DNA of 64,000 nt from an uncultured Spirochaetales bacterium (GTDB taxonomy: Bacteria; Spirochaetota; Spirochaetia; JABMQR01): NCBI GenBank assembly GCA_964567895.1, contig CAZMOX010000001.1:20992-84991 (forward strand). Direction: 5' to 3'. The notes beneath the pieces are model-generated. The model ran no database searches and was not told where the DNA came from. It worked only from the letters and a program-made list of their open reading frames with translations. Positions 460 through 56,636 of this stretch are shown here, in pieces (within the stretch, counting starts at the first letter, position 1; each line of letters starts with the position of its first letter). The position numbers and the translations under genes are program-made.

Positions 460-572
460 AGTTTGCAAAGTTAATATTTAAATCTGTGAACTGTGATCTG
501 AATTTATTCCCTTTCCTATTAAACATTGTACAATGCAACAACCTCAGTATATACTATCCCTGAGGTGTTCAG

Positions 573-6757: not shown

Positions 6758-6825
6758 GTTATGCCCCAGTTTTTAAACAGGGACTCCCAAAGGAGCCCCT
6801 GTAGTTCTTTTATCATGTGGTGGAA

Positions 6826-9350: not shown

Positions 9351-9357
9351 AAATCTT

Positions 9358-12095: not shown

Positions 12096-12099
12096 ACTG

Positions 12100-13900: not shown

Positions 13901-14755
13901 TTACTTAGTGAATCTCTTAATTGCCCTTACCTTTCTGGTTCTATCCAGATACTTTTTTATTTCCGGATATTCAATGCTGCCCACACCGGTAAAAAGGATA
14001 TCAATGACATTCAATTGAGCAATACGTGAGCCGCGGGCCCCGCTTCTCATACTTGTTTCGGGGGAGGATATAAACAATTTGATGTCCGCTTTTTCGCTTA
14101 AAGTATTATTTCCGAATTTTGTGATTGAAATTGTTGTGGCACCTGTCGTTTTTGCAATTTTTATAGTCTCAACCATATCTCTTGTCTCTCCTGAATAGGA
14201 GATAAATACCGCTACATCCACCATTGAAAGGTTCGCCGCGGCGGTTGCCTGAAGATGAGTGTCCGCGTAGGCCATTGAATATCTGTTGATCCTCATAAAT
14301 TTCTGCTGGGCATCAAGAGCAATGATTCCTGATGCTCCTACACCATAGAAATCGATTCGTTTTGACATATGCAGGACATCTACAGCCCTTTTAATCTCCT
14401 TCGGATCCAGAACAAGGAGGGTATCAGTTATCGATTTTTTATTATTGTGAGAAACATTCTTGATTATCGTATCGAGATTATCTCCGACCCGAATATCTGT
14501 ATATATCTCTTCATTTTCCTTTGTCGATGAGATGTCGGAAGCCATCTTGATTGCAAATTCCCTGTATCCCTCAAATCTCAGGGTTTTACAGAAACGGATA
14601 ACAGCCGCATTGCTGGTGTTGCACCTTTCCGCGAGTTCTCCAACAGAAAGTCCAACGGATTCCTCTGGAAAATTGAGTATATAACTGGCAACCTTTTTTT
14701 CTGATGGTTTTAAATCGTTTAATGCTTCTTTAACTTTTAAAAGACATCCGTTCAT
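13901..14755 (-). CDS. MurR/RpiR-family transcriptional regulator (HTH plus SIS domain)
   Basis: The HTH VGELAERCNTSNAAVIRFCKTLRFEGYREF is typical of RpiR, with a C-terminal SIS domain. It overlaps the upstream nagZ by 4 bp. Confidence 0.8.
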   Translation of the reverse strand: MNGCLLKVKEALNDLKPSEKKVASYILNFPEESVGLSVGELAERCNTSNAAVIRFCKTLRFEGYREFAIKMASDISSTKENEEIYTDIRVGDNLDTIIKNVSHNNKKSITDTLLVLDPKEIKRAVDVLHMSKRIDFYGVGASGIIALDAQQKFMRINRYSMAYADTHLQATAAANLSMVDVAVFISYSGETRDMVETIKIAKTTGATTISITKFGNNTLSEKADIKLFISSPETSMRSGARGSRIAQLNVIDILFTGVGSIEYPEIKKYLDRTRKVRAIKRFTK

Positions 14756-31087: not shown

Positions 31088-32632
31088 ATGAAAACATATG
31101 ATGCAGTTATCGTAGGTGCCGGTGTTATTGGCTGTGCAATTGCGCGAACTCTTGCCCAAACAAACCTCTCTCTATTGATTATTGAAAAAGAACCGGATAC
31201 CGGTTTCGGCATCAGCAGCAGAAACAGCGGGGTGGTGCATTCAGGTATTCACTATGCCCCAGGCTCAAACAGAGCTGTGTATAATGTCCGGGGTAACCGC
31301 ATACTGGAAGAACTCTGCAGCGAACTTAAGGTTCCCTACAAAAGATCCGGTAAAATAACAGTTGCCTTTTCCGATGAACAAGTGCACATATTAACAACAC
31401 TGCTGAAGCAGGGAACAGAGAATGGTGTACCCGGTATCAAACTGATCGATAAAAATGAGATGGAAATACTCCAACCGGGGACCGGGGGGAAAGCCGCACT
31501 TTATACCCCGTCAACTGGTATTGTCAGCCCATACGAACTTACTATCGCATTGGCAGAGAGTGCTTATGCGAATGGAGCAGAATTCAGGTTCAATCATACC
31601 GTTAAATCTGTTGATCTCCCCGATCCGGCACAACACAGAGAACATTTCCTTCTGCATACCGAGCATGTAGAAAGTTCCAGAACAAAAAGGATCTCCTATG
31701 CTGCTAAAGTTGTCATAAATGCCGCAGGCCTTGGTTCTGCCGATATAGCTAAAATGGCCGGAATTGATGAATACACAATCTACCCTTGCCGGGGTGAATA
31801 CTATGTCCTTGATAAAAGACTACGGAACTCACTAAATTTGTTAATATACCCTGTTCCCGGTGCTCATAGCAGCGGGCTGGGAATACATCTTACCAATACC
31901 GTTGATGGAAATATTCTTATCGGTCCCTCAAATGAATATATTATGGATGATGAAGATACTTCTACCACTATTAATATAATGGAGACACTCCGGGAGGAGG
32001 GGCATCATCTTCTGCCTACTTTGGGCGGTTCGGATTTTATCAGGAATTTTTCCGGTATTCGACCAAAGCTTGCTCCGCCGGAAGAGGGAGGTTTTCGGGA
32101 TTTTGTAATCGAATCGCGTTCGGATATTCCTGGTTTTATTAACCTTATGGGCATTGAGAGCCCCGGCCTTACCGCTTCACCTGCAATTGCTGAGAAGGTA
32201 AAGGTATTAGTAGGAAAGCTTATCCCACTGCAGAATCGGGAGAACATTGTACGAGGGCGACCTGTTATACACAATACTCCATTTACTGAAAAGTCTTTTT
32301 CCTCCTGTTCCAAGGAAGAAAAATCCAGGCTTATTTCACACAATCCCGACTACGGTTCTATTGTCTGCCGCTGTGAAGAAGTTACTTTAGCAGAAATTAA
32401 AGAAGCTGCTGCACGTACACTTGGTCCTGTTACTTTTGCAGGAATTAAATATCGCACCCGGGCTATGATGGGAAGATGTCAGGGGGGTTTCTGCCTACAG
32501 CGGTTAACTGAAATTCTCCGGGAATCGTTTGGTATTACCGTAGAAGAACAAACCCTGAAAGGTCCAGGCACAGAACTTTTCATGGGTTCGTTAAGAACAT
32601 CTCAAACACCCGATATAAAAGAGTCACTATGA
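31088..32632 (+). CDS. FAD-dependent oxidoreductase of the anaerobic glycerol-3-phosphate dehydrogenase GlpA-like type, with a C-terminal BFD-like [2Fe-2S] domain
   Basis: Dinucleotide-binding fold YDAVIVGAGVIGCAIAR at the N-terminus, and BFD cysteines CRCEEVTLAEI...GRCQGGFC. Confidence 0.75.
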   Translation: MKTYDAVIVGAGVIGCAIARTLAQTNLSLLIIEKEPDTGFGISSRNSGVVHSGIHYAPGSNRAVYNVRGNRILEELCSELKVPYKRSGKITVAFSDEQVHILTTLLKQGTENGVPGIKLIDKNEMEILQPGTGGKAALYTPSTGIVSPYELTIALAESAYANGAEFRFNHTVKSVDLPDPAQHREHFLLHTEHVESSRTKRISYAAKVVINAAGLGSADIAKMAGIDEYTIYPCRGEYYVLDKRLRNSLNLLIYPVPGAHSSGLGIHLTNTVDGNILIGPSNEYIMDDEDTSTTINIMETLREEGHHLLPTLGGSDFIRNFSGIRPKLAPPEEGGFRDFVIESRSDIPGFINLMGIESPGLTASPAIAEKVKVLVGKLIPLQNRENIVRGRPVIHNTPFTEKSFSSCSKEEKSRLISHNPDYGSIVCRCEEVTLAEIKEAAARTLGPVTFAGIKYRTRAMMGRCQGGFCLQRLTEILRESFGITVEEQTLKGPGTELFMGSLRTSQTPDIKESL

Positions 32633-33948
32633 AAAAAAACCTGAATTTTTCATTAGAGAATGAGCCTCAATTTGCTGTTGCCATAATTGGGGCAGGGCCG
32701 GCGGGGTTGGCCGCTGCTTTCGGGGCGGCAAAAGCGGGTGCTGAATCTGTCGTAATTATTGAACGGAACTATCAACCTGGAGGAATTCTCAACCAGTGTA
32801 TTCACGATGGTTTTGGTTTACACCGATATAATGAATCTCTCTCCGGGCCGGAATATGCTGCCCGGGAAAATAATATTTTACAGAATAAAGAGATAATTGA
32901 TAAAATCACCCTGTTAGCCGGAACCTTTGTTCAAGATCTCGTACCGGAAAATCAGGGTTTTTCGCTTGCAGTTATGTCTTCAGGATCTTTTAGGGTAATA
33001 AGAGCGGCGGCTGTTGTTTTAGCTATGGGTTGTCGGGAGCGAACCGCCGGTGCAATCTCTTTACCAGGAACCAGGCCTGCCGGAATCTTTACTGCAGGAA
33101 CAGCCCAACGCCTAATGAATATGCAGAATATAAGTGTTGGTAAACGTGCTGTTATTATTGGATCGGGTGATATTGGACTAATAATGGCCAGAAGGCTTAC
33201 CCTGGAAAGCGCTGACGTTGCCGCGGTTACTGACATACAGCCCTATCCCGGGGGACTCGACCGGAATGTTAGACAATGTCTTCATGATTTTAATATTCCG
33301 CTTATGCTATCCACCGGAGTCGTTAAAGTACATGGGAAAAAACGGGTTGAAGGAATTACTGTTGCCCCCCTGGATACTTTAGGTAATTTGGAATTATCAT
33401 CATCAACCTATATTTCCTGTAATACCATTCTACTCTCAGTAGGTCTTATACCGGAACATGAACTGGCAAGGGGTGCCGGTGCGGCACTGGATACATCCAC
33501 ACAAGGTCCAATAGTTGACCAGCATCTTATGACAACAGTTCCAGGGTTGTTCGCCTGCGGAAATGTACTGCAGGTGCATGATCTTGTCGATTTTGTATCG
33601 GAAGAAGCGGAGTATGCCGGATCTTGTGCGTCTAACAAGGTACTTACCCCACCCCGGCTCTCTATAGAAACCACTCAGGCCAACAGCACCACTTTGTCTT
33701 TAAAAGTAGGATCCAATTTGCGTTATGTGCTTCCTCATACCATTACAGAACCAGGCCGCATAACTCTCTCTATGCGTGTAACCGTACCGGAAGTAAATTT
33801 CCGTGTCCATGTAGCACGTCTGGAAAAAAGTGCTGACAGGATCCTGTTAACAAAAACATTCAGCAGAGTGTCACCATCTGAGATGTTACGATTTACCTTT
33901 AACTGTGATACAGTTGAGCCCTTGGAGGTGTATGGTGAATCTTTCTGA
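32629..33948 (+). CDS. FAD/NAD(P)-binding pyridine nucleotide-disulfide-type oxidoreductase (second subunit of the triad)
   Basis: Two dinucleotide-binding folds, AIIGAGPAGLAAAFGAA and VIIGSGDIGLIMARRL. There is a 4-bp overlap with the upstream gene. Confidence 0.7.
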   Translation: MKKNLNFSLENEPQFAVAIIGAGPAGLAAAFGAAKAGAESVVIIERNYQPGGILNQCIHDGFGLHRYNESLSGPEYAARENNILQNKEIIDKITLLAGTFVQDLVPENQGFSLAVMSSGSFRVIRAAAVVLAMGCRERTAGAISLPGTRPAGIFTAGTAQRLMNMQNISVGKRAVIIGSGDIGLIMARRLTLESADVAAVTDIQPYPGGLDRNVRQCLHDFNIPLMLSTGVVKVHGKKRVEGITVAPLDTLGNLELSSSTYISCNTILLSVGLIPEHELARGAGAALDTSTQGPIVDQHLMTTVPGLFACGNVLQVHDLVDFVSEEAEYAGSCASNKVLTPPRLSIETTQANSTTLSLKVGSNLRYVLPHTITEPGRITLSMRVTVPEVNFRVHVARLEKSADRILLTKTFSRVSPSEMLRFTFNCDTVEPLEVYGESF

Positions 33949-34393
33949 TCAGGAAAAACATATCGTAGAAGAACTCACCTGCATTGTTTGCCCAAAAAGT
34001 TGTGTTCTCAGGGTTGAGAAAGACAAAATATCCGGGACAATTACCGCAATACATAATGCAAATTGCCAGCGGGGAATCGCTTGGGTTACCCAGGAACTGC
34101 TTCATCCAACCAGAAGTGTCTGCAGCTCAGTACTGGTTGAAAATGGAACCGAACCGCTGACAGGGGTCAGAACAAATCAGCCAGTTTCCAGGGATGATGT
34201 GTTTAAGGTTATGGGGGCAATAAAGAGTTGTCGAATCTCTGCGCCGGTAGCTATTGGTGCAATAGTACTGGAAAATCCCGGCGGTGTTCCCTGCAGAGTC
34301 ATCGCAACAAGAGCGGTTGGAAGAGAAGATCGGAAGCTGGAGACGGGAAGCCGGAAGATGAAGAGAAAAATTTTAATACAACTTCCAACTTGA
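33932..34393 (+). CDS. DUF1667 domain protein (third subunit of the triad). The start is chosen at MVNLSD, which has a GGAGG ribosome-binding site.
   Basis: The Cys motif CIVCPKSCVLRV is typical of DUF1667. It is co-linear with the two oxidoreductase genes. Confidence 0.6.
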   Translation: MVNLSDQEKHIVEELTCIVCPKSCVLRVEKDKISGTITAIHNANCQRGIAWVTQELLHPTRSVCSSVLVENGTEPLTGVRTNQPVSRDDVFKVMGAIKSCRISAPVAIGAIVLENPGGVPCRVIATRAVGREDRKLETGSRKMKRKILIQLPT

Positions 34394-37208: not shown

Positions 37209-37650
37209 TCTACAATCAATACCTTTATTAAATTTTATCTCTTAACATATTAAGTATTCTATTCTCATTACAATCATCTGTTCATTAAAAAGTTGAATAT
37301 TGTATAGAAGATTTTTTATATAAATTATATAGAACGACCTTATAGTATCATCATTCCAACTTTCTTTAAATAGGTTTTTCTTTTTGCACATATTTTTTCA
37401 ATATAATTCTTTCCAGAGTTATATAACATTTACAAAGAAAGAAAATACCACAATCCGCATAATATCTGCCGTTTGCCACCTGTCTAGTACTAGTCCCTGA
37501 TCATAGTTTCTTACGTAATTTATTCTCACTATTTGACAAACTCCCCCTGTAAGAAAATTCCGTTTCCCTCTATACTGTATTTTTTCTTAAAACTTGCTAA
37601 ATTTGCTGGGTTTAATAAATTTAACATATACCATAAAAATGAGGCAGCAG

Positions 37651-38610
37651 ATGAAACACACATATCACATCGTTATTGCCGGTACCGGAGTATTTGGTAC
37701 CGCATTGGCTCAGCGCCTATCATGGAACTCAAAGAACCACATAACGCTCTATTCCATTGAACCGGATGTGGTTAAGGATATCAATGAAAAAAATCAAAAT
37801 TCTAAATACTTCCCCGGCAGGCATATCAATAATGATATCAGAGCAACTCTTGATATTTCCTGCGCATATAACGCTGATGTTATTTTTCTGGCAATTCCTT
37901 CTCAGGTTATTGAACCGTATACCCATAAAATAGCACCTTACACCCGCAAAGATACCCGTATAATTAATCTTTCAAAAGGTCTCTCTGCTGACGGCAGCTT
38001 TTTAGTAGATTCAATACCTTTTCCCCATGTAGGTTCATTAAAGGGACCAACATTTGCTGTTGAAGTTATGAACGGTGTTCCTACAGCCCTTACCTACGGA
38101 GGAACAACTGATGATTTTTCTTATATAAGGAATATATTACTGGAAACTGGTATCTCTCTCGATCATACTGACGATCTTAGAGGTGTCGAGCTGGTTAGCG
38201 TGCTGAAAAATATGTATGCTATAGCCATTGGAATCGTCTCCGGCCGCTACAACTCCCCAAATGTAGATTTCCTGGTAATGACAAAAGCAGTCAATGAGAT
38301 GCGTGATCTTCTGGAATTATATGGATGCAGCAGCAATACCATTTTCAATTACTGCGGGATTGGTGATTTAGGCCTAACAGCTTTAAACGATCTCAGTAGG
38401 AACAGAACTCTGGGGCTTCTGATCGGTAAGGGTTTTTTCAATGATCCCAAAAGTTCTACGGTAATTGAAGGACTCAGAACGATCCGCCTGCTGGGTGAGT
38501 TGGTGAGGGAAAAGGGGCTTGAAGACAAATTTGTCGTACTTGAAGCCCTCTATGCTCTTATGTATTCAGGAGTGAGTTTAAATGAGTATTATCTTAAAGT
38601 TCTATCCTGA
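37651..38610 (+). CDS. gpsA: NAD(P)H-dependent glycerol-3-phosphate dehydrogenase-like protein. The start is at MKHTYH, which has a GAGG ribosome-binding site; the ORF track extends to 37594.
   Basis: Rossmann fold IVIAGTGVFGTALAQRL and GpsA-like conserved blocks (FLAIPSQV, NLSKGL, VLKNMYAIAIG). Confidence 0.65.
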   Translation: MKHTYHIVIAGTGVFGTALAQRLSWNSKNHITLYSIEPDVVKDINEKNQNSKYFPGRHINNDIRATLDISCAYNADVIFLAIPSQVIEPYTHKIAPYTRKDTRIINLSKGLSADGSFLVDSIPFPHVGSLKGPTFAVEVMNGVPTALTYGGTTDDFSYIRNILLETGISLDHTDDLRGVELVSVLKNMYAIAIGIVSGRYNSPNVDFLVMTKAVNEMRDLLELYGCSSNTIFNYCGIGDLGLTALNDLSRNRTLGLLIGKGFFNDPKSSTVIEGLRTIRLLGELVREKGLEDKFVVLEALYALMYSGVSLNEYYLKVLS

Positions 38611-46680: not shown

Positions 46681-46887
46681 ATGATAACAAAAAGTATACA
46701 GTAAGGCTCACTAATAGATCAAGACGGACGCTTCTATGATTGCTATTGAAATACAGGCAGAGAACATTGACTGCTGTCCGGGATGGGGATATACTTTCTT
46801 TACAACCGTGGTAATACCACCAGCCATATACATTTTTAGCTTTTTGATTCAGGTTTTTCTGAATGGCCAAATCATGGAGGTTTAATA

Positions 46888-47616
46888 TTGAGATTTAAAC
46901 TGAATCCTGTTACTGTCCCAACTCCTAAAAATATATTCGTAAAACAAATTGAAGAACTTATTCTCTCGGGAGAAGTAGACCCTGGAGAAAAAATACCGTC
47001 GGAACGTATCCTTGCAGGTAAAATGGGAATATCCAGACCGGTTGTACACGAAGGATTGATCGAGCTTGCCAGCAAAGGGCTGGTTACCATGAAACCACGA
47101 CACGGCTGCTATATAAATGATTATAGGAAATCCGGCTCTTTTGAGTTGCTAAACGCTCTCTATCACTACAATTCCGGCGAATTGACAGAAGAAATCCGGG
47201 ATGGATTGGAAGAACTCAGGACTCTCATTGGTATTGATGCAATCCGGAAAATTACCCAAAAGCCGGAAATAAATAAAATTGCGGATGAACTTACGTCCAT
47301 TATGAAAGAGGGAGAAATTCTGAAACCCGGTCAGCCTGCTGCGAAAGCAGAAAATGACTATCGGTTTCATTATACAGTCCTGTATCATAGCGGAAATATG
47401 ATTTATCCCCTGATACTCAACTCAGCCAGAGGAGTTTATCTGAACCTTCTTGAGCATTTTTTCCGTACTCCGGATATTGATATATCGGTAAATAAAATCA
47501 AGAAACAATTAATAGATTCCATGACTGCGGGAAATACTGATACTACTAGTGGGCTAATGAAAAAACTCACATCATATAGAACCTATTTTCAGGAATCATA
47601 TAATGCATCCACGTAA
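46888..47616 (+). CDS. GntR-family transcriptional regulator (FadR/FCD-type C-terminal domain)
   Basis: HTH SERILAGKMGISRPVVHEGLIELASKGLV followed by a helical C-terminal domain. Length 242 aa. Confidence 0.75.
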   Translation: MRFKLNPVTVPTPKNIFVKQIEELILSGEVDPGEKIPSERILAGKMGISRPVVHEGLIELASKGLVTMKPRHGCYINDYRKSGSFELLNALYHYNSGELTEEIRDGLEELRTLIGIDAIRKITQKPEINKIADELTSIMKEGEILKPGQPAAKAENDYRFHYTVLYHSGNMIYPLILNSARGVYLNLLEHFFRTPDIDISVNKIKKQLIDSMTAGNTDTTSGLMKKLTSYRTYFQESYNAST

Positions 47617-49411
47617 ACCAGCCGTAAAAACACTTCACAACATATCAAGAAAACTCAAAAAAAAAAGGTTATCCAGGGTAAAAATCGAAACCTGTTATGA
47701 TGGTAAATCTATCAGGCTTTCCGGGAAAGTCCAAACCTGGCAACAAAAAGTTGAGGCAGGAAATGTAGCTGCCTCTCTTTCCCGAAAATGTAAGGGAATC
47801 GTAAATGACATCATCGCTGAATCAGTGCATGAGCCCCGGTTAAAAACACCCGGATCCGGCGATTTTGATAAAACCCTGGATGGTCTGTCGTATGATGCGG
47901 TAATAATCGGAGCCGGAGTAATCGGCTGTTTCATTGCGAGAGAACTTGCACGCTATGAATTATCTGTCGCAGTCCTGGAAAAAGAGACAGATGTAGCAAT
48001 GCATGCTTCCGGAAGAAACGATGGAATGATTCATCCCGGATTTGCACCCAAACCGGGAACCTTGAAGGCAATGTACAACAGCAAGGGCAACAGCATGTAC
48101 CCGGCAATAGCTAAAGAACTTGATATTGAGTATCGGCAATGTGGATCTATCCTCTTGTTTTCATCATCCTGGATGCGTCTGCTTGTACCGTTTATAAAAT
48201 ACCGATGCAGGAGAAACGGGGTTTCCGGAAACTACCGGTATATTACATGTATGCAAGTCCGGAACCTGGAACCTCATGTAACGCATAAACAGAAAGGCGG
48301 TTTTTATTTCCCCACTGCCGGGATTGTATCGCCTTTTCAGATAACTATCGCTTGTGCGGAACATGCAGCACAGAATGGTGCTGTTTTCCATAGAAATACC
48401 TTTGTAACCGGGTTTAAAAACCTGAACAGAAAAAACAAAAGGAAAATTACAGGAATTATTACCAACCATGGGATTATCAGGGCCAATGTTATTATCAACG
48501 CGGCAGGGATATGGGCAGATTACATTGCAGGTATGGCTGATGATCAATTCTTTTCCCTTCATGGAAGAAAAGGAACCGATGCAATACTCGATAAAAAAAC
48601 CGGCAGATACCAAAAGCATATAATGGCAATGCCGTCTTTATTGAAAACGTCGGGTAACCACACCCACTCAAAAGGTGGGGGGATAGTCGTTTGCATTGAG
48701 GGGAATACCCTGTTGGGACCTACAGTAGAGGAAATCCCGGATAGGGAAGATTATTCCACGCATAAAAATGAATTTATAAAACTGGAAAAGCATTTGTCCC
48801 TCAATACCCGGCTGAAAAAGAGTGATATAATTAACTACTACTCAGGTGTGCGTGCGGCAACATGGAAAGAAGATTTTATCGTGGAAAAATCTGAGCGGAT
48901 ACCAAACCTGGTTCATGCCGCCGGCATACAATCACCCGGCCTTGCAAGTGCTCCTGCTATAGCTGTTGATATCCGCAAAATGGTCCTGGATATCCTTTCC
49001 ACAGAAAGGGTCGAAAAAGTTGGAAAAACTGATCCAATTCCACTGAAACAAAACTATATTCCCAGCCGTCAACATCTGCCTGTTCTTAAACTCCTTTCAG
49101 ACGATGAGAAAAAAGCGTTAATCAGGAAAGACCCGCTTTACGGCAATATTATCTGCAGATGTGAGGAGATTTCTGAGGGGGAAGTCCGGGACGCACTCCA
49201 TTCATCACTACCGGCTGTTACCATTGACGGAATAAAACGGCGTACCCGGGCTGGAACAGGGAGGTGTCACGGAGGATTTTGCCTATCAAATGTCCTGGAG
49301 ATAATCAGCATTGAAACAGGAATCCCCCAGTCACAGATCACCAGAAAGGGTGGAGATTCAAGAATAATCATCCGGGACATTGGGGGAAAAGAGGGCAGAT
49401 ATGGGGACTGA
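47603..49411 (+). CDS. GlpA-like FAD-dependent oxidoreductase with C-terminal BFD [2Fe-2S] domain and a ~100-aa BON-like N-terminal extension. Paralog of 31088-32632.
   Basis: The motifs YDAVIIGAGVIGCFIAREL at aa ~108 and CRCEEISEGEV...GRCHGGFC match the first triad. The extension IETCYDGKSIRLSGKVQTWQQKVEAGNVAASL resembles a BON domain. Confidence 0.7.
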   Translation: MHPRKPAVKTLHNISRKLKKKRLSRVKIETCYDGKSIRLSGKVQTWQQKVEAGNVAASLSRKCKGIVNDIIAESVHEPRLKTPGSGDFDKTLDGLSYDAVIIGAGVIGCFIARELARYELSVAVLEKETDVAMHASGRNDGMIHPGFAPKPGTLKAMYNSKGNSMYPAIAKELDIEYRQCGSILLFSSSWMRLLVPFIKYRCRRNGVSGNYRYITCMQVRNLEPHVTHKQKGGFYFPTAGIVSPFQITIACAEHAAQNGAVFHRNTFVTGFKNLNRKNKRKITGIITNHGIIRANVIINAAGIWADYIAGMADDQFFSLHGRKGTDAILDKKTGRYQKHIMAMPSLLKTSGNHTHSKGGGIVVCIEGNTLLGPTVEEIPDREDYSTHKNEFIKLEKHLSLNTRLKKSDIINYYSGVRAATWKEDFIVEKSERIPNLVHAAGIQSPGLASAPAIAVDIRKMVLDILSTERVEKVGKTDPIPLKQNYIPSRQHLPVLKLLSDDEKKALIRKDPLYGNIICRCEEISEGEVRDALHSSLPAVTIDGIKRRTRAGTGRCHGGFCLSNVLEIISIETGIPQSQITRKGGDSRIIIRDIGGKEGRYGD

Positions 49412-50753
49412 GATTACAGGTCGACAACCTGAAAAGCAGTATGACATTCTCATAATCGGGGGAGGGCCGGCTGGTATGGCTGCTGCTGCTGCCGGGGCGG
49501 AACATGGTGCATCTGTTTGCCTTATTGAACGAAACAACAAATTAGGCGGAATCCTGAAGCAGTGTATTCATGATGGATTTGGGATTATTAAGTTTAGTGA
49601 GCGTTTAACGGGGCCGGAATACGCTTACCGATATAGAAACCTGGTGAAATCATACGGCAGCAAGGTAACAGTACTAACCTCCGCGTATGCCTCAGAAATC
49701 TCATACCATCCTGGGAAATCAGCCGTTTACCCGTTTACCACAGAGATAATAACAGCTCAAAATGGAGCTCTTTGCTTTACATCATCAAACTTGATACTGG
49801 CAATGGGATGCCGGGAAAAAAGTGACAGACAGGTTTTTATCCATGGTGACAGACCGGCCGGAATTCTCACCGCCGGACAGGCGCAATATTTTATTAATAT
49901 TCAGGGACTTATGCCCTGCAAACGCTGCATAATCCTGGGAAGCGGTGATATCGGTCTGATTATGGCAAGAAGGCTTGTTCTTGAGGGAGCTGAGGTAGAA
50001 GGAGTATACGAAATCCAGAACGAACCCTCAGGACTAAAGCGTAATATTGTACAATGCCTGGATGATTTCTCGATTCCGCTTCATCTCCAAACAACCGTAA
50101 CTGAAGTGCATGGAAGAGAACGGGTGGAATCAATAACCGTATGCAAGGTAGATGATAATCAAAAAGAAATACTGGGGACTGAAAAAACTATTAATTGTGA
50201 TTCTCTTATCGTCAGTGTCGGGTTAATCCCCGAAAATGATATTCTCAATTTCCCTCAGGTTTTACTTGACCCCCATACCGGCGGTCCGGAAGTAGACCAA
50301 AATATGCAGACAAGAATTCCCGGGTTGTTTTCCTGTGGTAATGCCTTACATGTTTGTGACCTTGTTGATTATGTATCTGAGAGCGGAGAGACCGCAGGGA
50401 CTTATGCAGCAAAAGTTTCACAAAATTCGGGGATTCCCAACAGAACTGTGGAAATACAATCCTCCGGAAACCTGACCTACCAGATTCCACACTTTATTTC
50501 TCTCCCCGACAGCATGAAGGAATCAGCACCCGCACAAAGCATACCGGTCTATTTCAGGGTCGCAAAAAGCACAGAAAAGGCTGAACTTGTTATCAGAAGC
50601 GGTAAATCTGTACTAGTACGGAAACGATACACTAATCTTTCACCTCCGGAAATGAAGCGGGTCGAACTTCCCCTGGCTGCTGTTGCCAAAGCCGCTCTCT
50701 CATCATCGCTGATTGAGTGCATCATGACAGATTTGGGAGAAATTGATGGATAG
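49401..50753 (+). CDS. FAD/NAD(P)-binding pyridine nucleotide-disulfide-type oxidoreductase. Paralog of 32629-33948.
   Basis: Shares ILIIGGGPAGMAAAAAGA and ILGSGDIGLIMARRLVLEGA with the first copy. The whole length is clearly similar. Confidence 0.7.
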   Translation: MGTEITGRQPEKQYDILIIGGGPAGMAAAAAGAEHGASVCLIERNNKLGGILKQCIHDGFGIIKFSERLTGPEYAYRYRNLVKSYGSKVTVLTSAYASEISYHPGKSAVYPFTTEIITAQNGALCFTSSNLILAMGCREKSDRQVFIHGDRPAGILTAGQAQYFINIQGLMPCKRCIILGSGDIGLIMARRLVLEGAEVEGVYEIQNEPSGLKRNIVQCLDDFSIPLHLQTTVTEVHGRERVESITVCKVDDNQKEILGTEKTINCDSLIVSVGLIPENDILNFPQVLLDPHTGGPEVDQNMQTRIPGLFSCGNALHVCDLVDYVSESGETAGTYAAKVSQNSGIPNRTVEIQSSGNLTYQIPHFISLPDSMKESAPAQSIPVYFRVAKSTEKAELVIRSGKSVLVRKRYTNLSPPEMKRVELPLAAVAKAALSSSLIECIMTDLGEIDG

Positions 50754-51114
50754 CAAAGAAAAAGAAATTTTTTGTATACGGTGCCCGAAAGGATGCCTTA
50801 TGCATGTAATTATGCGAAAATCGGGTATAGAAGTAACAGGGGCTGAATGCAGAAATGGTATAACTTATGCGGAGTCGGAAATCATTTGCCCTGTGAGGCT
50901 GCTTACCACAACCGTAAAAACTGCTTTTCCCAGACAACCAAGACTGCCGGTTAAAACTTCAGGGGAAATCCCTCTTAGTAAGTTTCCTGAAGTTCTTAGG
51001 AAGGCTGGTGAAATACTTGTGATAACCGCTCTCCAGCCCGGGGATATAGCAGTAAAAGATATCACTGAGAATGGTATTCATCTTATTTGCACAGGAGGCA
51101 TCGATAATGACTGA
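50743..51114 (+). CDS. DUF1667 domain protein (paralog of 33932-34393)
   Basis: Contains CIRCPKGCLMHV. 123 aa. Confidence 0.65.
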   Translation: MMDSKEKEIFCIRCPKGCLMHVIMRKSGIEVTGAECRNGITYAESEIICPVRLLTTTVKTAFPRQPRLPVKTSGEIPLSKFPEVLRKAGEILVITALQPGDIAVKDITENGIHLICTGGIDND

Positions 51115-52666
51115 TATACTGCTCGTAATTGATTGCGGAACGCAAAGTTTACGGACAGTCCTGTTTAATTCTAAAGGAAAAATAATTGAGAAAGTGAAAA
51201 TTGAGTATGCTCCTTATACTTCCCCCAAACCTGGCTGGGCAGAACAGGATCCGGAAATTTTTTGGCAGTCCCTGGTTAAGGGCTGCCGCATCCTGAAAAG
51301 TAACCAACCGGAAATGTTTGCATCAATTAGCGGGGTCGGAGTCACAACCCTCCGTGACACCATGATTAATCTATCTGAGGATGGGACAGCCCTTCGACAT
51401 GCAACAACCTGGCTGGATACCAGAAAAGCTTCTCCTGTATATAAACCCGGTTTTATCATGCAGTCCGCATATTCCCTTGTCGGGATGCTGGGAACCATCC
51501 GTCAGATTATGGCCGAAGGGAAATTAAACTGGATCAGACAATACCAGCCTGAACTTTGGGAAAAAACATGGAAATTTGTCCAGGTCTCCGGATTCCTGAA
51601 TTTCCGGTTAACCGGCCAGGCAGCTGACTCAATAGCTTCGATGGTTGGTCATATCCCGGTTAACCATAAAAAAAGAACCTGGGCAAGAAGGGGTTCGTTA
51701 CTGGATCATATTTTTCCACTTGAGACTGAAAAGCGTCCGCAAATTGTTGAACCTGGAAAGGAAATTGGCACTATAACCAAAAAAGCTGCACTGGAAACAG
51801 GCATAGCTGCAGGTACTCCCGTTATCGCATGCGGCGCTGATAAAAGCTGCGAAATAGTAGGAATGGGTGTTCTGGAACCCGACATCGGATCCATCAGTTT
51901 TGGGACAACCGCAACTATTTCATTCTCAACAAAACGATACTTCTCACCAATACGGTTTATGCCTGCTTATACCGCAGCTGTTCCCGGCTACTGGGTCCCT
52001 GAAATTGAGATATTCCGCGGGTACTGGATGCTTCGCTGGTTCCGCGATGAGCTGGGATACGAGGAAGAGGAAGAGGCAAAAAGAGTCGGAATACTCCCGG
52101 AAGAACTTCTTAATACCCTTCTTGACGCAGACCCGCCGGGTAATAACGGTTTGATCCTACATCCTTACTGGAGCCCCGGTCTAAACGTACCCGGTGCCAA
52201 AGGCGCAATTATCGGATTTGGCGGGATACATAAAAAAAGCTCAATCTACAGAGGTATCATTGAGGGCCTTGGATATGCTCTGCGTGATGGTATGGAAACG
52301 TTAGAGCGGCGGGGAAGAATTTCCTGCAGCTCAGCAGTGGTTTCCGGCGGGGCAAGTCAGAGTGACAGAATTTGCCAGATAACTGCGGATATTCTTGGAA
52401 AAAACCTTATCCGTGGGGAAACATATGAAACATCCGCCCTTGGAGCAGCGATTATAACCTCAACAGGAGTCGGAATTCATGAATCCATTCCAGCAGCAAC
52501 CCGGGTTATGGTCCGCTATACCAGGAAATTCATTCCCGATAAAAAGAACAGTCAACTCTATGATCGTCTGTATAACGAAGTGTACCTGCAAATTTACAAA
52601 AAATTACGAAATCTGCATGAGACAATTCGGGATATAACAGGCTACCCGGAAAATAATCCGGATTAA
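51104..52666 (+). CDS. FGGY-family carbohydrate or polyol kinase. The start is chosen at MTDILLVIDCGTQSLR; the ORF track extends to 51071.
   Basis: N-terminal sugar-kinase fold (DCGTQSLR, PKPGWAEQDPEIFW) and C-terminal FGGY motifs (GGASQSDRICQITADILG, ETSALGAA). Confidence 0.75.
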   Translation: MMTDILLVIDCGTQSLRTVLFNSKGKIIEKVKIEYAPYTSPKPGWAEQDPEIFWQSLVKGCRILKSNQPEMFASISGVGVTTLRDTMINLSEDGTALRHATTWLDTRKASPVYKPGFIMQSAYSLVGMLGTIRQIMAEGKLNWIRQYQPELWEKTWKFVQVSGFLNFRLTGQAADSIASMVGHIPVNHKKRTWARRGSLLDHIFPLETEKRPQIVEPGKEIGTITKKAALETGIAAGTPVIACGADKSCEIVGMGVLEPDIGSISFGTTATISFSTKRYFSPIRFMPAYTAAVPGYWVPEIEIFRGYWMLRWFRDELGYEEEEEAKRVGILPEELLNTLLDADPPGNNGLILHPYWSPGLNVPGAKGAIIGFGGIHKKSSIYRGIIEGLGYALRDGMETLERRGRISCSSAVVSGGASQSDRICQITADILGKNLIRGETYETSALGAAIITSTGVGIHESIPAATRVMVRYTRKFIPDKKNSQLYDRLYNEVYLQIYKKLRNLHETIRDITGYPENNPD

Positions 52667-52681
52667 TAACAGGAGTAGAAC

Positions 52682-54451
52682 ATGGGAACCGGCACAGGCG
52701 AAAGAAAGCGATACAAAGGATTCAAACCTGAGTGGGAACAAGTACCTCCTCCGGAAAAATCATTCAGGTCAATTCTCAAATGGGGAAACCCTTTAGTCTT
52801 CAAGGAACCGAACGAGCGGCTTTACTCACTTTTAAAGCAGGTCTTAAATCTTTCTGACAAAGATTTTTCCGGAAAAATGAAAGAAGGTCATGAGCAAATA
52901 GTAGATTCTGTCCCCTGCTTATTACATCAGCATATTATTGACAAACTGACTGCTATTGTGGGTGTGGGGGAAAAAGGTTTTTCAACACATACTTACGACC
53001 GGCTCTCAGCTTCATATGGAAAAACAATGTTTGATCTCTTCCGACTCAGGGAAAAAATTATTGAGAACATTCCCGACATTGTATTATTCCCGGGATCAAA
53101 AAAGGAAATTGAGGATATTACCGCTGTTTGTGCTGAATATAGTGTACCACTCTATGTGTATGGAGGCGGTTCATCAGTAACACGCGGAACTGAAGCAGTA
53201 AAGGGAGGGGTAACCCTTGACTTGAGAAAAAACTTTAACAAAGTCGTGGAATTTAATGAAACAAACCAGACAATTACCGTTGAAGCCGGAATATCTGGAC
53301 CAAAGCTGGAGGAAGTCCTGAACAATGCGGAAAAGTTATTTAACGCAAAACGGTCGTATACATGCGGTCACTTTCCTCAGTCATTTGAGTACTCAAGCGT
53401 AGGCGGGTGGGTGGTTACCCGTGGAGCCGGCCAGAATTCCACCTATTACGGAAATATTAAGGATATAGTCTTCAGACAGTGGTATTCTACTCCTGTCGGC
53501 CCAATAAGCACCTACGGGCTTCCCGCTCATGCAGTCGGTCCTGACCTGGATGAAATAATGATGGGAAGTGAGGGAGCTTACGGGGTTTTAACCCATGTTA
53601 CATTACGATTTTTCCGGTATCAGCCGGAGAATCGAAAACGATTCAGTTATATTTTTCGAACCTGGGAGGATACTATAGGGGCTGCGCGGGAAATTGTGCA
53701 ACATGAAGCTGGTTTCCCATCAGTTTTTCGCCTTTCGGATCCGGAAGAGACTGATGTTATGCTTAAGATGTATAAAGTTGAGGGGACAATCATTGAAAGC
53801 GCCATGAATCTTTTCGGGTACAAACCTATGGAGCGCTGCCTTTTTCTAGGGTGGACAGAGGGAGAAAAGGGGTTCTCAAAAAACCTGAATCAAACCATTG
53901 GAAAAATCTGCAGAAAATTCGGCGGTTTTTATCTTACCGGCTACCCCGTTTCCAGCTGGGAACATGGGCGGTTTACCGATCCCTATCTCCGCGAATCCCT
54001 GCAGGATTACGGAATTATTATTGATACTATGGAGTGCGGAGTAACTTGGGATAGCATGAAGGATGTTCACGCCTATGTACGGGCATTTGCAAAATCCCGC
54101 CCGGACACTGTGTGCATGACACATATTTCACATGCCTATCCACAGGGAGCTAATCTTTACTTCATCTTTATCGGGAAATTTAATGATAAGGAAGAATACC
54201 TCGAATACCAGTCTGGAATTTTTGATAATATCCTTTCCAGCGGTGCTTCCATGAGTCATCATCATGGTGTCGGGAAAATGACAGCACAATGGGTTGAGCA
54301 GTCTGTTGGTAGTGAGCGAATGAATGTTTTCCGTGCCCTGAAAAATCATTTTGACCCGGATAATATTATGAACCCGGGAGGAACCCTTGGTCTGGATATG
54401 ACAGAAAAGGAGAGACGCAAACCTCGCTTTTCTGGAAAAAAGTGGGGATAA
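52682..54451 (+). CDS. FAD-linked oxidase of the alkyldihydroxyacetonephosphate synthase (ADAPS/AgpS)-like family
   Basis: 589-aa protein of the VAO/PCMH FAD-binding type. The C-terminal SHHHGVGK is characteristic of ADAPS homologs, not of GlcD, and an N-terminal LKWGNP resembles the ADAPS WNGWG region. Confidence 0.55.
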   Translation: MGTGTGERKRYKGFKPEWEQVPPPEKSFRSILKWGNPLVFKEPNERLYSLLKQVLNLSDKDFSGKMKEGHEQIVDSVPCLLHQHIIDKLTAIVGVGEKGFSTHTYDRLSASYGKTMFDLFRLREKIIENIPDIVLFPGSKKEIEDITAVCAEYSVPLYVYGGGSSVTRGTEAVKGGVTLDLRKNFNKVVEFNETNQTITVEAGISGPKLEEVLNNAEKLFNAKRSYTCGHFPQSFEYSSVGGWVVTRGAGQNSTYYGNIKDIVFRQWYSTPVGPISTYGLPAHAVGPDLDEIMMGSEGAYGVLTHVTLRFFRYQPENRKRFSYIFRTWEDTIGAAREIVQHEAGFPSVFRLSDPEETDVMLKMYKVEGTIIESAMNLFGYKPMERCLFLGWTEGEKGFSKNLNQTIGKICRKFGGFYLTGYPVSSWEHGRFTDPYLRESLQDYGIIIDTMECGVTWDSMKDVHAYVRAFAKSRPDTVCMTHISHAYPQGANLYFIFIGKFNDKEEYLEYQSGIFDNILSSGASMSHHHGVGKMTAQWVEQSVGSERMNVFRALKNHFDPDNIMNPGGTLGLDMTEKERRKPRFSGKKWG

Positions 54452-54550
54452 TCTTACGTAAAAAAAATTTGCTTCCATTAGCCTTCCATTACCCTTGTAC
54501 TGTCTTAAGATATTAAGTATTATCTTGGTTTATAACTTACGTTATATTGA

Positions 54551-55417
54551 ATGCAGAATTATTGCGTTTTTGCCTTACTGATGGGGGGACTTATAGCAGT
54601 GAGCGGGCTATCTTTCAGGCGTGCTGTGATAACGGGCGGTTCAAGTGGTATAGGGTTCTCAATAGCAGCCTGGCTTATTCAGCAGAATACAGAAGTTCTG
54701 CTGGTAGCCAGGGATCCGAAAAAACTTGAACAGGCAGCAACACACCTCACATCGACTTACGGTACAACTACCGGGGTCAAGACTCTTTCTCTTGATATTG
54801 CTGATCGTGCATTAGTTACAGAAAAACTGGGAAAAGCCTGCAGTGATGAGTTGGCCCCGGATTTGCTGGTTAACTGCGCGGGTTTGTCACATCCAGACTA
54901 TTTTCAGGAACTAGACTCGGATATTTTCGATGCAACTGTCAGGACAAACCTTACCGGGACCTGGAATGTCCTGAAAACCGTTGTACCGTATATGAAACAG
55001 GGAAGCAGAGTGGTGAATGTCTCATCTGTTGCCGGTCTTATCGGTACGTTTGGCTATACTGCTTATGCTGCCACGAAATTCGGTATAGTAGGTTTGAGTG
55101 AGGCTTTGAGAAACGAACTCTCCCTTAAGGGAATCCGTGTTTCTGTATTATGCCCTCCTGATACCCATACCCCCCAGCTTGAAAGAGAAAACCTGACAAA
55201 ACCCCCGGAAACAAAAGCTATATCCGGAAACGCCGGTATTCTGAAACCTGAACAAGTTGCACGGGCACTTTTCAAGGGACTTCGCAAAAATAGATTTATC
55301 ATAATACCCGGTTTTCAGAGTAAAATGATATATTTGCTGAAGCGTCTTTTCCCCGGAATTATTTATGCAATGATTGATATGTACGCAAAAAAACCCATAG
55401 GAAGTGATGATGAGTAA
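54551..55417 (+). CDS. short-chain dehydrogenase/reductase resembling 3-ketodihydrosphingosine reductase (KDSR). An acyl/alkyl-DHAP reductase is an alternative.
   Basis: N-terminal TM helix, then VITGGSSGIGFSIA...LLVARDPKKLEQA, which closely parallels the KDSR/FVT1 VTGGSSGIG...LVARN.KL. The catalytic YAATK is present. Confidence 0.55.
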   Translation: MQNYCVFALLMGGLIAVSGLSFRRAVITGGSSGIGFSIAAWLIQQNTEVLLVARDPKKLEQAATHLTSTYGTTTGVKTLSLDIADRALVTEKLGKACSDELAPDLLVNCAGLSHPDYFQELDSDIFDATVRTNLTGTWNVLKTVVPYMKQGSRVVNVSSVAGLIGTFGYTAYAATKFGIVGLSEALRNELSLKGIRVSVLCPPDTHTPQLERENLTKPPETKAISGNAGILKPEQVARALFKGLRKNRFIIIPGFQSKMIYLLKRLFPGIIYAMIDMYAKKPIGSDDE

Positions 55418-56636
55418 TAAAGAAGAGAATCAAAAAATATCTCCTGTTTTCAAAAAATGCTATGCTTTTGAGGATGCAAATGAGGCCCGGCAGGCCGGAC
55501 TCTACCCATTTTTTAAGCCAATCCAGCGGAACAGCGGGACTAAAGTGTATATTGACGATCGTGAATTACTGATGGCCGGCTCTAACAACTACCTGGGACT
55601 TGCAAATGACCCGCGGTTAAAAGAGGCTGCCGAGAGTGTTGTTGAACAATATGGAACAAGCTGTTCCGGATCACGTTTTATGAATGGAACACTTGATCTT
55701 CATGAACAGTTGGAGGTAGAGCTTGCAGATTTTGTCAAAAAAGATGCTGCTTTGTGCTTTACAACCGGGTACCAGACCAATCTCGGAGCCATATCAGCAG
55801 TGCTGGGAAAAGGGGATCACATAATAAGTGATAAATATAATCATGCCTCTATTATGGACGCAGTGTTCCTTACTACCGGGATGAAGCGAAATATCAACCT
55901 GCACAGATACAAACATAACAACATGGAAGAACTGGAAAGAATCCTGAAACGCATACCCAGGAACGCGGGAAAATTAATTGTAACCGATGGGGTCTTTTCC
56001 ATGGAAGGGGATATTACTGAACTGGTGAAAATACGGGAACTGGCAGATGCCTATAAAGCCGGCATCTATCTTGATGAAGCTCACGCAATTGGGGTAATTG
56101 GAAAAACCGGGAGGGGAACCTGTGAGCATTACGAAAACGACTCCCTTGCTGATATCATAATGTGTACCTTCTCAAAATCTTTCGGTTCAATCGGGGGTTT
56201 TGTTGCAGGAAGTGCTGAAGTGATAGATTATATTAAACACATGTCAAGGCCTCTTATTTTCAGTGCATCTATGCCGCCGGCTAATATTGCCGCTGCCCGG
56301 AAAGCACTTGAAATCATCAAGACAGAACCGGAAAGAGTTCACCGGCTCCAGGCAATTGCTAAAAAAATGATATCCGGCTTCAAGTCTATTGGTTTCAATG
56401 TAGGGACTGCTGTAACTCCGGTTGTTCCGCTTATTATTGGGAATAATGAAAAAACTTTTATGTTCTGGAAAAATCTGTATGAACGCGGGATCTATGTAAA
56501 CCCGGTTATCTCACCTGCGGTCCCGCCAAAAAGATCACTTATCAGGACTTCTTATATGTCCATTCACAAGGACGATGAGCTTGACTGGCTGCTGGAAGTT
56601 GCAGAGGAAGAAGGAAAGAAACTGGGAATTATCTGA
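55404..56636 (+). CDS. PLP-dependent alpha-oxoamine synthase, serine palmitoyltransferase-like
   Basis: The TFSKSFGSIGGFVAG PLP-lysine block matches the SPT TFTKSFG pattern rather than BioF or Kbl. The N-terminal GSNNYLGL substrate block is also present. Confidence 0.6.
   Translation: MMMSNKEENQKISPVFKKCYAFEDANEARQAGLYPFFKPIQRNSGTKVYIDDRELLMAGSNNYLGLANDPRLKEAAESVVEQYGTSCSGSRFMNGTLDLHEQLEVELADFVKKDAALCFTTGYQTNLGAISAVLGKGDHIISDKYNHASIMDAVFLTTGMKRNINLHRYKHNNMEELERILKRIPRNAGKLIVTDGVFSMEGDITELVKIRELADAYKAGIYLDEAHAIGVIGKTGRGTCEHYENDSLADIIMCTFSKSFGSIGGFVAGSAEVIDYIKHMSRPLIFSASMPPANIAAARKALEIIKTEPERVHRLQAIAKKMISGFKSIGFNVGTAVTPVVPLIIGNNEKTFMFWKNLYERGIYVNPVISPAVPPKRSLIRTSYMSIHKDDELDWLLEVAEEEGKKLGII

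Follow-up and report, generated by a model that had tools for sequence, protein, structure and literature searches.

Described operons and the Spirochaetales locus

In Pseudomonas aeruginosa, the AraC regulator GliR activates PA3026-PA3025-PA3024 together with PA3023, a phospholipase C and a DUF2804 protein, as reported by Kotecka et al. in 2021 (PMC8151288). PA3026 is a FAD-binding oxidoreductase, PA3025 a GlpD homologue, PA3024 an FGGY kinase and PA3023 a YegS lipid kinase, and the proposed route runs from glycerol via glycerol-3-phosphate (G3P), dihydroxyacetone phosphate (DHAP) and acyl-DHAP to alkyl-DHAP (PMC8151288). Here, we analyzed a 64,000-nucleotide (nt) stretch of DNA, referred to as the window, from an uncultured Spirochaetales bacterium (GenBank assembly GCA_964567895.1, contig CAZMOX010000001.1, positions 20,992 to 84,991 of the forward strand). 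Its positions 46888-56636 contain eight co-directional plus-strand open reading frames (ORFs) that constitute two modules lying side by side. Module A (46888-54451) encodes a GntR-family regulator, a triad of GlpA-like dehydrogenase, NOX-like and DUF1667 subunits, an FGGY-family kinase and a flavoprotein of the AGPS/ADAPS family; module B (54599-56636) encodes a short-chain dehydrogenase/reductase (SDR) and a synthase resembling serine palmitoyltransferase (SPT). Module A is, judged by its conserved synteny, a genuine functional unit. We propose, with a probability of roughly 0.4, that it is an inducible operon in which three enzyme activities work one after another on the backbone of a 1-substituted glycerol, not on free glycerol.

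Compared at the level of enzyme families, module A and the GliR operon share an AGPS-annotated FAD oxidoreductase, a FAD-dependent G3P dehydrogenase, an FGGY kinase and a dedicated regulator. The wider GliR regulon offers further parallels, as its YegS/diacylglycerol (DAG)-kinase-family kinase recurs in two loci related to ours (L065, L073) and its DUF2804 protein beside a GlpA-like gene of the module A type in another (L066). The two operons differ in that the Pseudomonas version has a GlpD homologue instead of a GlpA-like protein with a BON-like extension and its NOX and DUF1667 partners, an AraC activator and an aerobic host. The GliR cluster was found in few reference genomes in the published search; metagenomes, by contrast, commonly contain the anaerobe version. 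Searches of the literature that combined DUF1667 or BON with an AGPS operon returned no description of the anaerobe version with a BON-type triad, and this variant appears to be undescribed, its concept being already known. A preliminary description of this DNA had stated that such a DHAP-centered ether-lipid route had not been described as an operon, a statement that the 2021 Pseudomonas work (PMC8151288) overtakes.

Conserved synteny of module A

Related loci, denoted by L numbers, comprised 7 genome loci, 6 loci around named homologues and 80 metagenome loci collected via the GlpA-like alignment, all scored by tblastn with the window proteins. Metagenome groups were dereplicated at 90% nucleotide identity, and an AGPS-like neighbor was counted at an identity of at least 50%. 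The order regulator, GlpA-like protein, Pyr_redox_2 protein, DUF1667 protein, FGGY kinase (in some loci) and AGPS-like protein recurs in the genome or isolate loci L001, L002, L004 and L010-L014. Its hosts include Spirochaetales metagenome-assembled genomes (MAGs), Clostridium amylolyticum, Vallitalea okinawensis, a Mycoplasmatota isolate and many human-gut contigs, and also Anaerolineae.

The AGPS-like neighbor goes together with an N-terminal extension of the GlpA-like protein. Among the 31 groups with the extension, 23 have an AGPS-like neighbor, four a distant FAD oxidase and four neither; all seven extension-less groups lack both (23/31 versus 0/7 for the AGPS-like neighbor; Fisher p = 5e-4). 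ORF clustering revealed regulators as the only other recurrent neighbors (TetR in 19 loci, HutC-type GntR in 13 and FCD-type GntR in five), and no recurrent transporter, acyltransferase or fatty-acyl reductase was present among the clustered ORFs. Because this synteny is conserved across phyla, we regard the regulator, triad, kinase and AGPS-like protein as one functional unit; the first six genes stand together by more than chance. The earlier assignment of the whole block to one unit under one regulator thus holds for these six genes but does not extend to the SDR and SPT-like genes.

The window regulator scores 72 bits against the NCBIfam FadR model (NF003444), below its cut-off of 189, and has the general GntR plus FadR_C/FCD architecture. 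The same regulator type adjoins the operon in L001, L002, L016, L020 and L071, with HutC/UTRA-type GntR or TetR proteins taking this place in other lineages. Upstream of the operon in L002, a 70% relative, positions 199-4116 encode a sugar ATP-binding cassette (ABC) permease, an SDR, a KduI/ureidoglycolate-lyase-like protein and a second FGGY paralogue (25% identical).

The AGPS-family flavoprotein

The closest solved relatives of the flavoprotein are the ADAPS enzymes of Dictyostelium (2uuu, E = 1.6e-63) and guinea pig (4bby, E = 2.2e-56), the next family being D-lactate dehydrogenase at E = 1e-18. Its AlphaFold (AF2) model (predicted local distance difference test score (pLDDT) 81, predicted template modeling score (pTM) 0.84) gave the same picture: the top 36 Foldseek matches in the PDB are all AGPS chains, with template modeling (TM) scores of 0.66-0.74 and alignments spanning 540-560 columns, followed by D-lactate dehydrogenase at 0.61. 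Mutagenesis of Dictyostelium ADAPS has shown the importance of R352, R447 and Y508 (PMC3509576). These residues and the HHH loop correspond to R350, R437, Y493 and H526-528 of the window protein, which are invariant in 32 homologues. An N-terminal extension is likewise kept (~105 amino acids (aa) versus ~112 aa in ADAPS), with conserved P16, W18, R29, W34 and G35.

By sequence and predicted fold, the window protein is thus a genuine AGPS-family member that keeps every tested catalytic residue, and the label 'ADAPS-like' given in the preliminary description is justified by the solved relatives and the top 36 fold matches. It resembles eukaryotic AGPS/ADAPS (EC 2.5.1.26) in fold, domain order, length of the N-terminal extension, catalytic Tyr, both Arg residues and HHH loop, and differs in an identity of only ~25-30%, strictly anaerobic hosts and its partners, a dehydrogenase complex and a kinase. 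Myxococcus xanthus MXAN_1676-1674 has FAR, GNPAT and acyltransferase partner genes (PMC13012113), which the window operon lacks. Neither a DHAP acyltransferase nor a fatty-acyl reductase was detected in the 64-kb window or beside the AGPS-like gene in ~90 related loci; as already noted in the preliminary description, the window ORFs include neither the acyltransferase nor a source of the fatty alcohol.

With 4843 matches at E <= 1e-20, the AGPS-like family is large, and its conservation is unusually high, Spirochaetes, Clostridia and a Mycoplasmatota isolate sharing 58-72% identity. No other protein of the operon is as well conserved as the AGPS-like one (61-70% identity across phyla). Distant 'ADAPS' matches (<35% identity) in L072, L075-L077, L079 and L090 were left out of the AGPS-like count and tallied separately. 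Those in L075, L076 and L090, considered as further AGPS-like proteins, were rejected as probable GlcD-type oxidases, each standing with a GlcF/GlpC-like Cys-rich protein; in all three loci, the ~30% identical FAD oxidase and the Cys-rich protein are encoded upstream of an N-extended GlpA-like protein. A true GlpK-like kinase was found in L090, L079 and L084.

The dehydrogenase triad and its canonical second copy

The G3P dehydrogenase GlpTk-NOX-MOX combines a DAO and BFD protein with a pyridine-nucleotide-disulphide oxidoreductase and, as its third gene product, a DUF1667 protein (10.1101/2024.02.29.582781). The operon triad has the same three-gene architecture as this enzyme of Thermococcus kodakarensis (TK1393-TK1391), also present in Thermotoga and Clostridium perfringens, including the four Fe-S cysteines (C518, C520, C555 and C560), which are invariant. 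It departs from this type in that the DAO fold does not lie at the N terminus, being preceded by an extra BON-like domain, and in its linkage to an AGPS-like protein and a non-GlpK kinase instead of GlpK, GlpP or GlpF.

This N-terminal extension, not mentioned in the preliminary description, comprises ~95 aa (residues 1-95, encoded by 47603-47890) with invariant G41, W46, G53, G65 and N68. BON was the top Pfam match in four of four orthologues, each time below threshold (E = 4.5e-5 to 0.05). All AGPS-linked orthologues carry the extension and no canonical triad does. The BON domain family is thought to be membrane-binding.

A second, canonical triad with an extension-less GlpA-like protein lies outside the operon in the same window, its GlpA-like and NOX-like (32629-33948) members being 35% and 42% identical to the operon copies. 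It is solitary, standing between genes for a family-B DNA polymerase and a B12-radical-SAM protein. Extension-less triads elsewhere adjoin a G3P-responsive antiterminator (L093) or PlsY (L081), in keeping with a G3P dehydrogenase of the canonical GlpTk-NOX-MOX type. Moreover, the window encodes a GpsA-type NAD-dependent G3P dehydrogenase, GpsA being the usual biosynthetic link from DHAP to G3P. Since a canonical triad and GpsA are both present, the operon triad is probably not the general DHAP route of the cell, and sequence comparison marks it as a specialized paralogue. Its proposed role in DHAP supply is therefore unlikely, DHAP being a glycolytic intermediate in any case.

BON-type GlpA-like genes without an AGPS-like neighbor are preceded by an APH-family kinase gene in L055, L059, L063, L066 and L067. 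In L066 (4777-11531), the kinase and the BON-type protein are joined by a glycerate kinase, a DUF2804 protein and a DAG-kinase-family protein, an ensemble that echoes the GliR regulon. L067 (6629-14922) encodes an APH-family kinase, BON-type GlpA-like, NOX and DUF1667 proteins, a double class II aldolase, PadR, a major facilitator superfamily (MFS) transporter and SorC.

An interchangeable kinase slot

The FGGY kinase matched XylB best among NCBIfam models (231 bits; cut-off 380) and reached only 134 of the 590 bits demanded by the GlpK model TIGR01311. It keeps the catalytic Asp and has R-D at the position of GlpK R83-E84 but lacks Y135 and F270. By these scores it is not a glycerol-kinase equivalog, contrary to the role in converting polyol or glycerol to G3P that had been hypothesized for it.

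An FGGY kinase is encoded in 13 of the 23 dereplicated operons. Where it is lacking in L065 and L073, a lipid-kinase-family gene (DAGK_cat plus YegS_C; 14104-15015 and 6210-7127, respectively) directly follows the AGPS-like gene and looks like a non-orthologous replacement. The kinase is absent from L003 and L012, the Caloranaerobacter ferrireducens operon being among those without one, and lies downstream of the AGPS-like gene in L005, L030 and L034. None of 32 high-identity operons (counted before dereplication) contains an E. coli-type GlpK. The kinase slot is thus interchangeable. In L014, a 4.4-Mb contig, the FGGY gene is split into two ORFs (8311-9859), reflecting a pseudogene or an assembly error.

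A comparable gene set occurs on a Tsukamurella plasmid (L101), with a GlpD-type G3P dehydrogenase, TetR, an AGPS-like protein (30% identical, with both Arg residues, Tyr and HHH kept) and a DAG-kinase-family gene. We take this cluster to mirror Rv2249c-Rv2252 of Mycobacterium tuberculosis. The glpD1 clusters of Mycobacteriales share with module A a G3P dehydrogenase, an AGPS-like protein, a lipid-type kinase and, as in 19 anaerobe loci, TetR; they differ in the GlpD-type dehydrogenase, divergent genes and lack of FGGY, NOX-like and DUF1667 proteins. At least three non-orthologous systems, namely the one with the GlpTk-type triad described here, the GlpD version of Pseudomonas and that of Mycobacteriales, combine a kinase, a FAD-dependent G3P-type dehydrogenase and an AGPS-type flavoenzyme.

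Proposed function of module A

In the pathway that we propose, C1 of the glycerol would carry an alkyl or acyl chain, or perhaps a substituent of smaller size. The kinase, FGGY-type here and DAG-kinase-type in some relatives, would phosphorylate the free primary hydroxyl to give 1-radyl-G3P. The BON-tagged GlpA-like dehydrogenase would then oxidize C2 to the ketone, yielding 1-substituted DHAP, with electrons passing through the [2Fe-2S] domain to the NOX-like and DUF1667 subunits. Finally, the AGPS-like flavoprotein would act by the ADAPS mechanism, in which C1 is deprotonated, an adduct with flavin N5 forms and the C1 substituent is lost, so that this group would be exchanged or removed. Substrates, step order and direction are what we infer here; gene content, synteny, family membership, the kept catalytic residues, the paralogy of the triad and the separateness of module B are observed.

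Free glycerol is unconvincing as the starting compound because the kinase is not of the GlpK type, DHAP is abundant, a canonical G3P dehydrogenase is encoded next door and acyl-DHAP would still be missing. With a 1-substituted glycerol, 1-radyl-DHAP, the AGPS substrate, would arise without a DHAP acyltransferase, which answers all four problems. They bear directly on the route of the preliminary description, in which a de novo ether-lipid operon under the GntR regulator would convert glycerol by the FGGY kinase and the triad to DHAP, draw on an acyltransferase encoded elsewhere, form alkyl-DHAP by the AGPS-like protein and reduce it by the SDR. This route matches the scheme proposed for PA3026-PA3024 (PMC8151288) and is consistent with the full catalytic set and AGPS fold of the flavoprotein, the co-conservation of the kinase, G3P dehydrogenase and AGPS-like genes, the FadR_C-type domain of the regulator and the lack of a predicted terminator before the SDR gene. 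Furthermore, animal acyl/alkyl-DHAP reductases are SDRs (PMC13200781). Besides the four problems, which include the kinase without GlpK Y135 and F270 and a glycolytic DHAP pool that, together with the canonical triad and GpsA, makes a dedicated supply needless, the route is opposed by the lack of acyltransferase and fatty-acyl reductase genes across the ~90 loci, by an SDR-SPT pair that is absent from other operons and travels alone, and by regulators from repressor families typical of catabolic operons. Classical labeling indicates, in addition, that anaerobes make plasmalogens without a DHAP intermediate. On this evidence, we judge this route to be decidedly unlikely.

For the proposed series of reactions on a 1-substituted glycerol, we lean towards salvage or turnover, in which the sn-1 chain would be removed or exchanged to leave DHAP or another radyl-DHAP, ahead of ether-lipid synthesis, because a local repressor-type regulator is always present and an acyltransferase or fatty-acyl reductase never is. 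Features that favor a lipid substituent are the BON-like domain, the replacement of the kinase by DAG-kinase-family enzymes, regulators of the TetR family and, in Pseudomonas, the connection to phospholipase C. One specific form of such salvage, which we consider unlikely, is the oxygen-independent cleavage of glyceryl ethers, with substrates being 1-O-alkylglycerols that stem from plasmalogens, from ether lipids of animals or the diet, or from sediment necromass. Here, the kinase would yield 1-alkyl-G3P and the membrane-associated BON-type GlpA-like/NOX/DUF1667 complex 1-alkyl-DHAP, from which the AGPS homologue, running the ADAPS reaction in reverse with either water or a fatty acid entering, would release fatty alcohol and DHAP (or acyl-DHAP). 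If true, this would be the first such route known and would give the many AGPS homologues of bacteria, those of the human gut among them, their first physiological role; glyceryl ethers made or cleaved without oxygen would also fill a gap in lipid biochemistry and in the interpretation of sediment biomarkers.

Several observations weigh against the proposed pathway and, in part, for a soluble substrate. To our knowledge, FGGY kinases are known solely for soluble sugars and polyols, and the window kinase is closest to xylulokinase and autoinducer-2 (AI-2) kinase models. In L002 and L003, sugar-type ABC components are encoded close by, and the operon of L011 includes a PfkB kinase gene. The context of L067, with a BON-type triad followed by a class II aldolase, looks like soluble-sugar metabolism; accordingly, BON, whose assignment rests on a sub-threshold Pfam match, was downgraded as proof of a lipid substrate. 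Distant AGPS-like genes are clearly found in soluble-substrate contexts: in the ygc cluster of E. coli K-12 (L008, 2892657-2903374), AGPS-like YgcU, with HHH and Tyr kept, and FGGY kinase YgcE accompany SDR YgcW, GlpP-like YgcP, electron-transfer flavoprotein (ETF)/FixCX-like YgcNOQR and two MFS transporters, and a Roseibium AGPS-like gene stands with an FGGY kinase, a sugar ABC system and glycerol dehydrogenase. Membership of the kinase in the FGGY family, the gene surroundings in L067 and the analogues in E. coli and Roseibium thus favor a soluble substituent. Furthermore, Treponema pedis CP045670 (L009, 10001-11758) has a solitary AGPS-like gene, 70% identical, with no triad or kinase within 10 kb; no terminator is predicted between the two modules of the window, so that read-through transcription is possible; and deletion of the P. 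aeruginosa operon gave no phenotype (PMC8151288).

A soluble-substrate pathway could take the form of catabolism of a polyol or glyceryl compound, which the FGGY kinase would phosphorylate and the GlpA-like complex convert to a ketose phosphate, like EryA/EryB for erythritol in Brucella. The AGPS-like protein would be a second dehydrogenase feeding NOX/DUF1667 or would remove a small C1 substituent to give DHAP. The HutC/UTRA and SorC regulators agree with this pathway, as they usually sense sugar phosphates. Against it, a transporter is never encoded within the operon itself, lipid-kinase-family genes occupy the kinase slot of L065 and L073, TetR regulators occur in 19 loci, the dehydrogenase carries a BON-like domain, and phospholipase C and DAG kinases are associated with the analogous clusters of Pseudomonas and Tsukamurella. 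Moreover, the AGPS-like protein keeps R437, the 'YLR[ED]' arginine, which is lost in YgcU and the Roseibium protein. Both forms of soluble-polyol catabolism, taken jointly, seem to us possible but rather doubtful. The ygc cluster itself was rejected as an orthologous system and serves as an analogy only, YgcU and YgcE being 27% identical to their counterparts and YgcU lacking the N-terminal extension as well as R437.

Module A thus represents a large conserved clade of AGPS-like genes, with 60-70% identity across phyla, that is locked into an operon with a specialized G3P-dehydrogenase paralogue and a kinase and never with the classical ether-lipid partner genes. We know of no bacterial AGPS homologue outside Myxococcus with a demonstrated role. 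AGPS homologues routinely serve as metagenome markers of 'ether-lipid potential' (PMC11868695, 10.64898/2026.06.23.733905); caution is advised in taking AGPS-like genes of the kind described here for markers of ether-lipid synthesis. The anaerobe operon also connects to the unexplained Pseudomonas GliR and mycobacterial glpD1 clusters and yields a concrete three-step pathway proposal.

Module B as a separate unit

The SPT-like protein had NF047600 (serine palmitoyltransferase) as its best family with 491 bits, below the equivalog cut-off of 640, followed by BioF (373) and Kbl (359). For the SDR, the 3-ketodihydrosphingosine (3-KDS) reductase TSC10 (8jat) was among the top five PDB matches (E = 7e-26), and one source (JGI) gives the name 3-dehydrosphinganine reductase to several proteins that are 50-82% identical to it. 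The SDR is therefore probably a 3-ketosphinganine reductase, and in module B the SPT-like synthase would perform the condensation and the SDR would then reduce the ketone to a sphingoid base. Like the start module of bacterial sphingolipid synthesis, module B has an SPT-scoring synthase translationally coupled to an SDR; it differs in the SPT score below the curated cut-off and in the lack of an adjacent ceramide synthase or acyl carrier protein (ACP) gene.

The SDR-SPT pair is conserved in L001, L096 and L097. In the latter two, an SDR (55-58% identical) is directly followed by an SPT-like protein (75% identical), and module A genes are lacking within 7 kb; the SPT-like gene of L096 (7889-9114) is frameshifted, owing to a pseudogene or an assembly error. 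None of the 80 metagenome loci and none of 11 other genome loci had an SPT-like gene near the operon, L001 being the sole exception among the genome and isolate loci. The junction between the modules was seen solely in the window, in contigs encoding an identical ADAPS-like protein and in L001, a 90% relative. On grounds of synteny, the SDR was thus rejected as an alkyl-DHAP reductase, its role in the preliminary description, and the simplest reading is that module B is an independent sphingoid-base unit lying downstream by happenstance in this lineage.

The spacer between the modules agrees with this separation. The ~110 nt upstream of the SDR start are near-identical in the window and L001, the distal spacer differing by insertions of ~50 and ~25 nt, and the conserved block with promoter-like hexamers (Table 1) is probably the promoter and 5' untranslated region (UTR) of module B. 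We rejected the idea that this spacer contains an RNA element or a terminator, as an Rfam scan returned nothing and no terminator-like site was predicted in it. It is conceivable in principle that all eight genes form one transcription unit for a hybrid lipid, in which the AGPS-like protein would use as its alcohol substrate either the sphingoid base itself or a long-chain alcohol formed from this base. The co-directional genes without a predicted terminator and the arrangement kept in L001 and the contigs with an identical ADAPS-like protein fit such a unit; the restriction of the juxtaposition to one lineage, the missing SPT gene near the operon in other loci, the pair standing alone in L096 and L097 and the conserved block before the SDR gene make it very improbable.

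Layout and surroundings of the block

The domain assignments that the preliminary description had made by eye were upheld for all eight proteins by Pfam and NCBIfam profile scores (Table 1). That description spoke of a nine-gene block; its own list, like our count, contains eight ORFs. Its spacing data were reproduced with one exception. As longest ORFs, the first five genes overlap by 14, 32, 11 and 44 nt, the kinase and ADAPS-like genes are separated by 15 nt, and 99 nt lie between the latter and the first ATG of the SDR ORF, as reported. The SDR start itself required correction. The ATG at 54551 is not kept in L001, and the conserved start is the GTG at 54599. Gene calling placed the start at the same codon, for a 272-aa product, in contigs whose ADAPS-like protein is 100% identical, so that the actual spacer measures 147 nt.

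Table 1 Features of the gene block and related genes in the window
Feature	Position	Strand	Details
GntR-family regulator	46888-47616	+	FadR_C/FCD-type effector domain; Pfam GntR 61 bits, FadR_C 47 bits; module A
GlpA-like FAD dehydrogenase	47603-49411	+	C-terminal BFD [2Fe-2S], N-terminal BON-like extension; DAO 193 bits, Fer2_BFD 44 bits; module A
NOX-like pyridine-nucleotide-disulphide oxidoreductase subunit	49380-50753	+	Pyr_redox_2 99 bits; gene-caller start ~49401, 450 aa; module A
DUF1667 ('MOX') small subunit	50743-51114	+	PF07892 65 bits; module A
FGGY-family kinase	51071-52666	+	FGGY_N, FGGY_C; likely start 51107, giving 519 aa; module A
AGPS/ADAPS-family flavoprotein	52682-54451	+	FAD_binding_4 and FAD-oxidase_C; module A
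Conserved non-coding block	54485-54598	+	TTGTAC-17-TATTAT at 54495-54523; directly upstream of SDR gene
SDR, probably 3-ketosphinganine (3-dehydrosphinganine) reductase	54599-55417	+	Longest ORF from 54551; adh_short 151 bits; module B
SPT-like alpha-oxoamine synthase	55404-56636	+	Aminotran_1_2 (class I/II aminotransferase fold); overlaps SDR gene; module B
Sigma-70-like promoter match	46767-46795	+	TTGACT-17-TATACT; best of the region, 10/12; upstream of regulator gene; consensus match only
Upstream neighbors of the block		Opposite	Hypothetical gene, Mrp/ParA-like ATPase, NUDIX gene
Downstream neighbors of the block		Opposite	DtxR-type repressor, FeoB
Second GlpA-like/Pyr_redox_2/DUF1667 triad	31088-34393	+	Canonical; GlpA-like protein DAO and BFD, 514 aa, extension-less; outside operon
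GpsA-type NAD-dependent G3P dehydrogenase	37594-38610		9 kb upstream of operon

The block is bordered on both sides by unrelated opposite-strand genes. The total number of promoter-like sites in the region does not exceed that in shuffled sequences, which also bears on the promoter match upstream of the regulator gene. Elsewhere in the window, positions 10285-12825 contain ETF beta and alpha genes followed by a 241-aa ORF that covers just one half (FAD-oxidase_C) of a VAO-type oxidase and may be a truncated LctD-like lactate dehydrogenase or the result of a frameshift. Finally, positions 573-4340 encode a 1255-aa protein in which ankyrin repeats make up nearly the whole length, an unusual feature in a free-living spirochaete.

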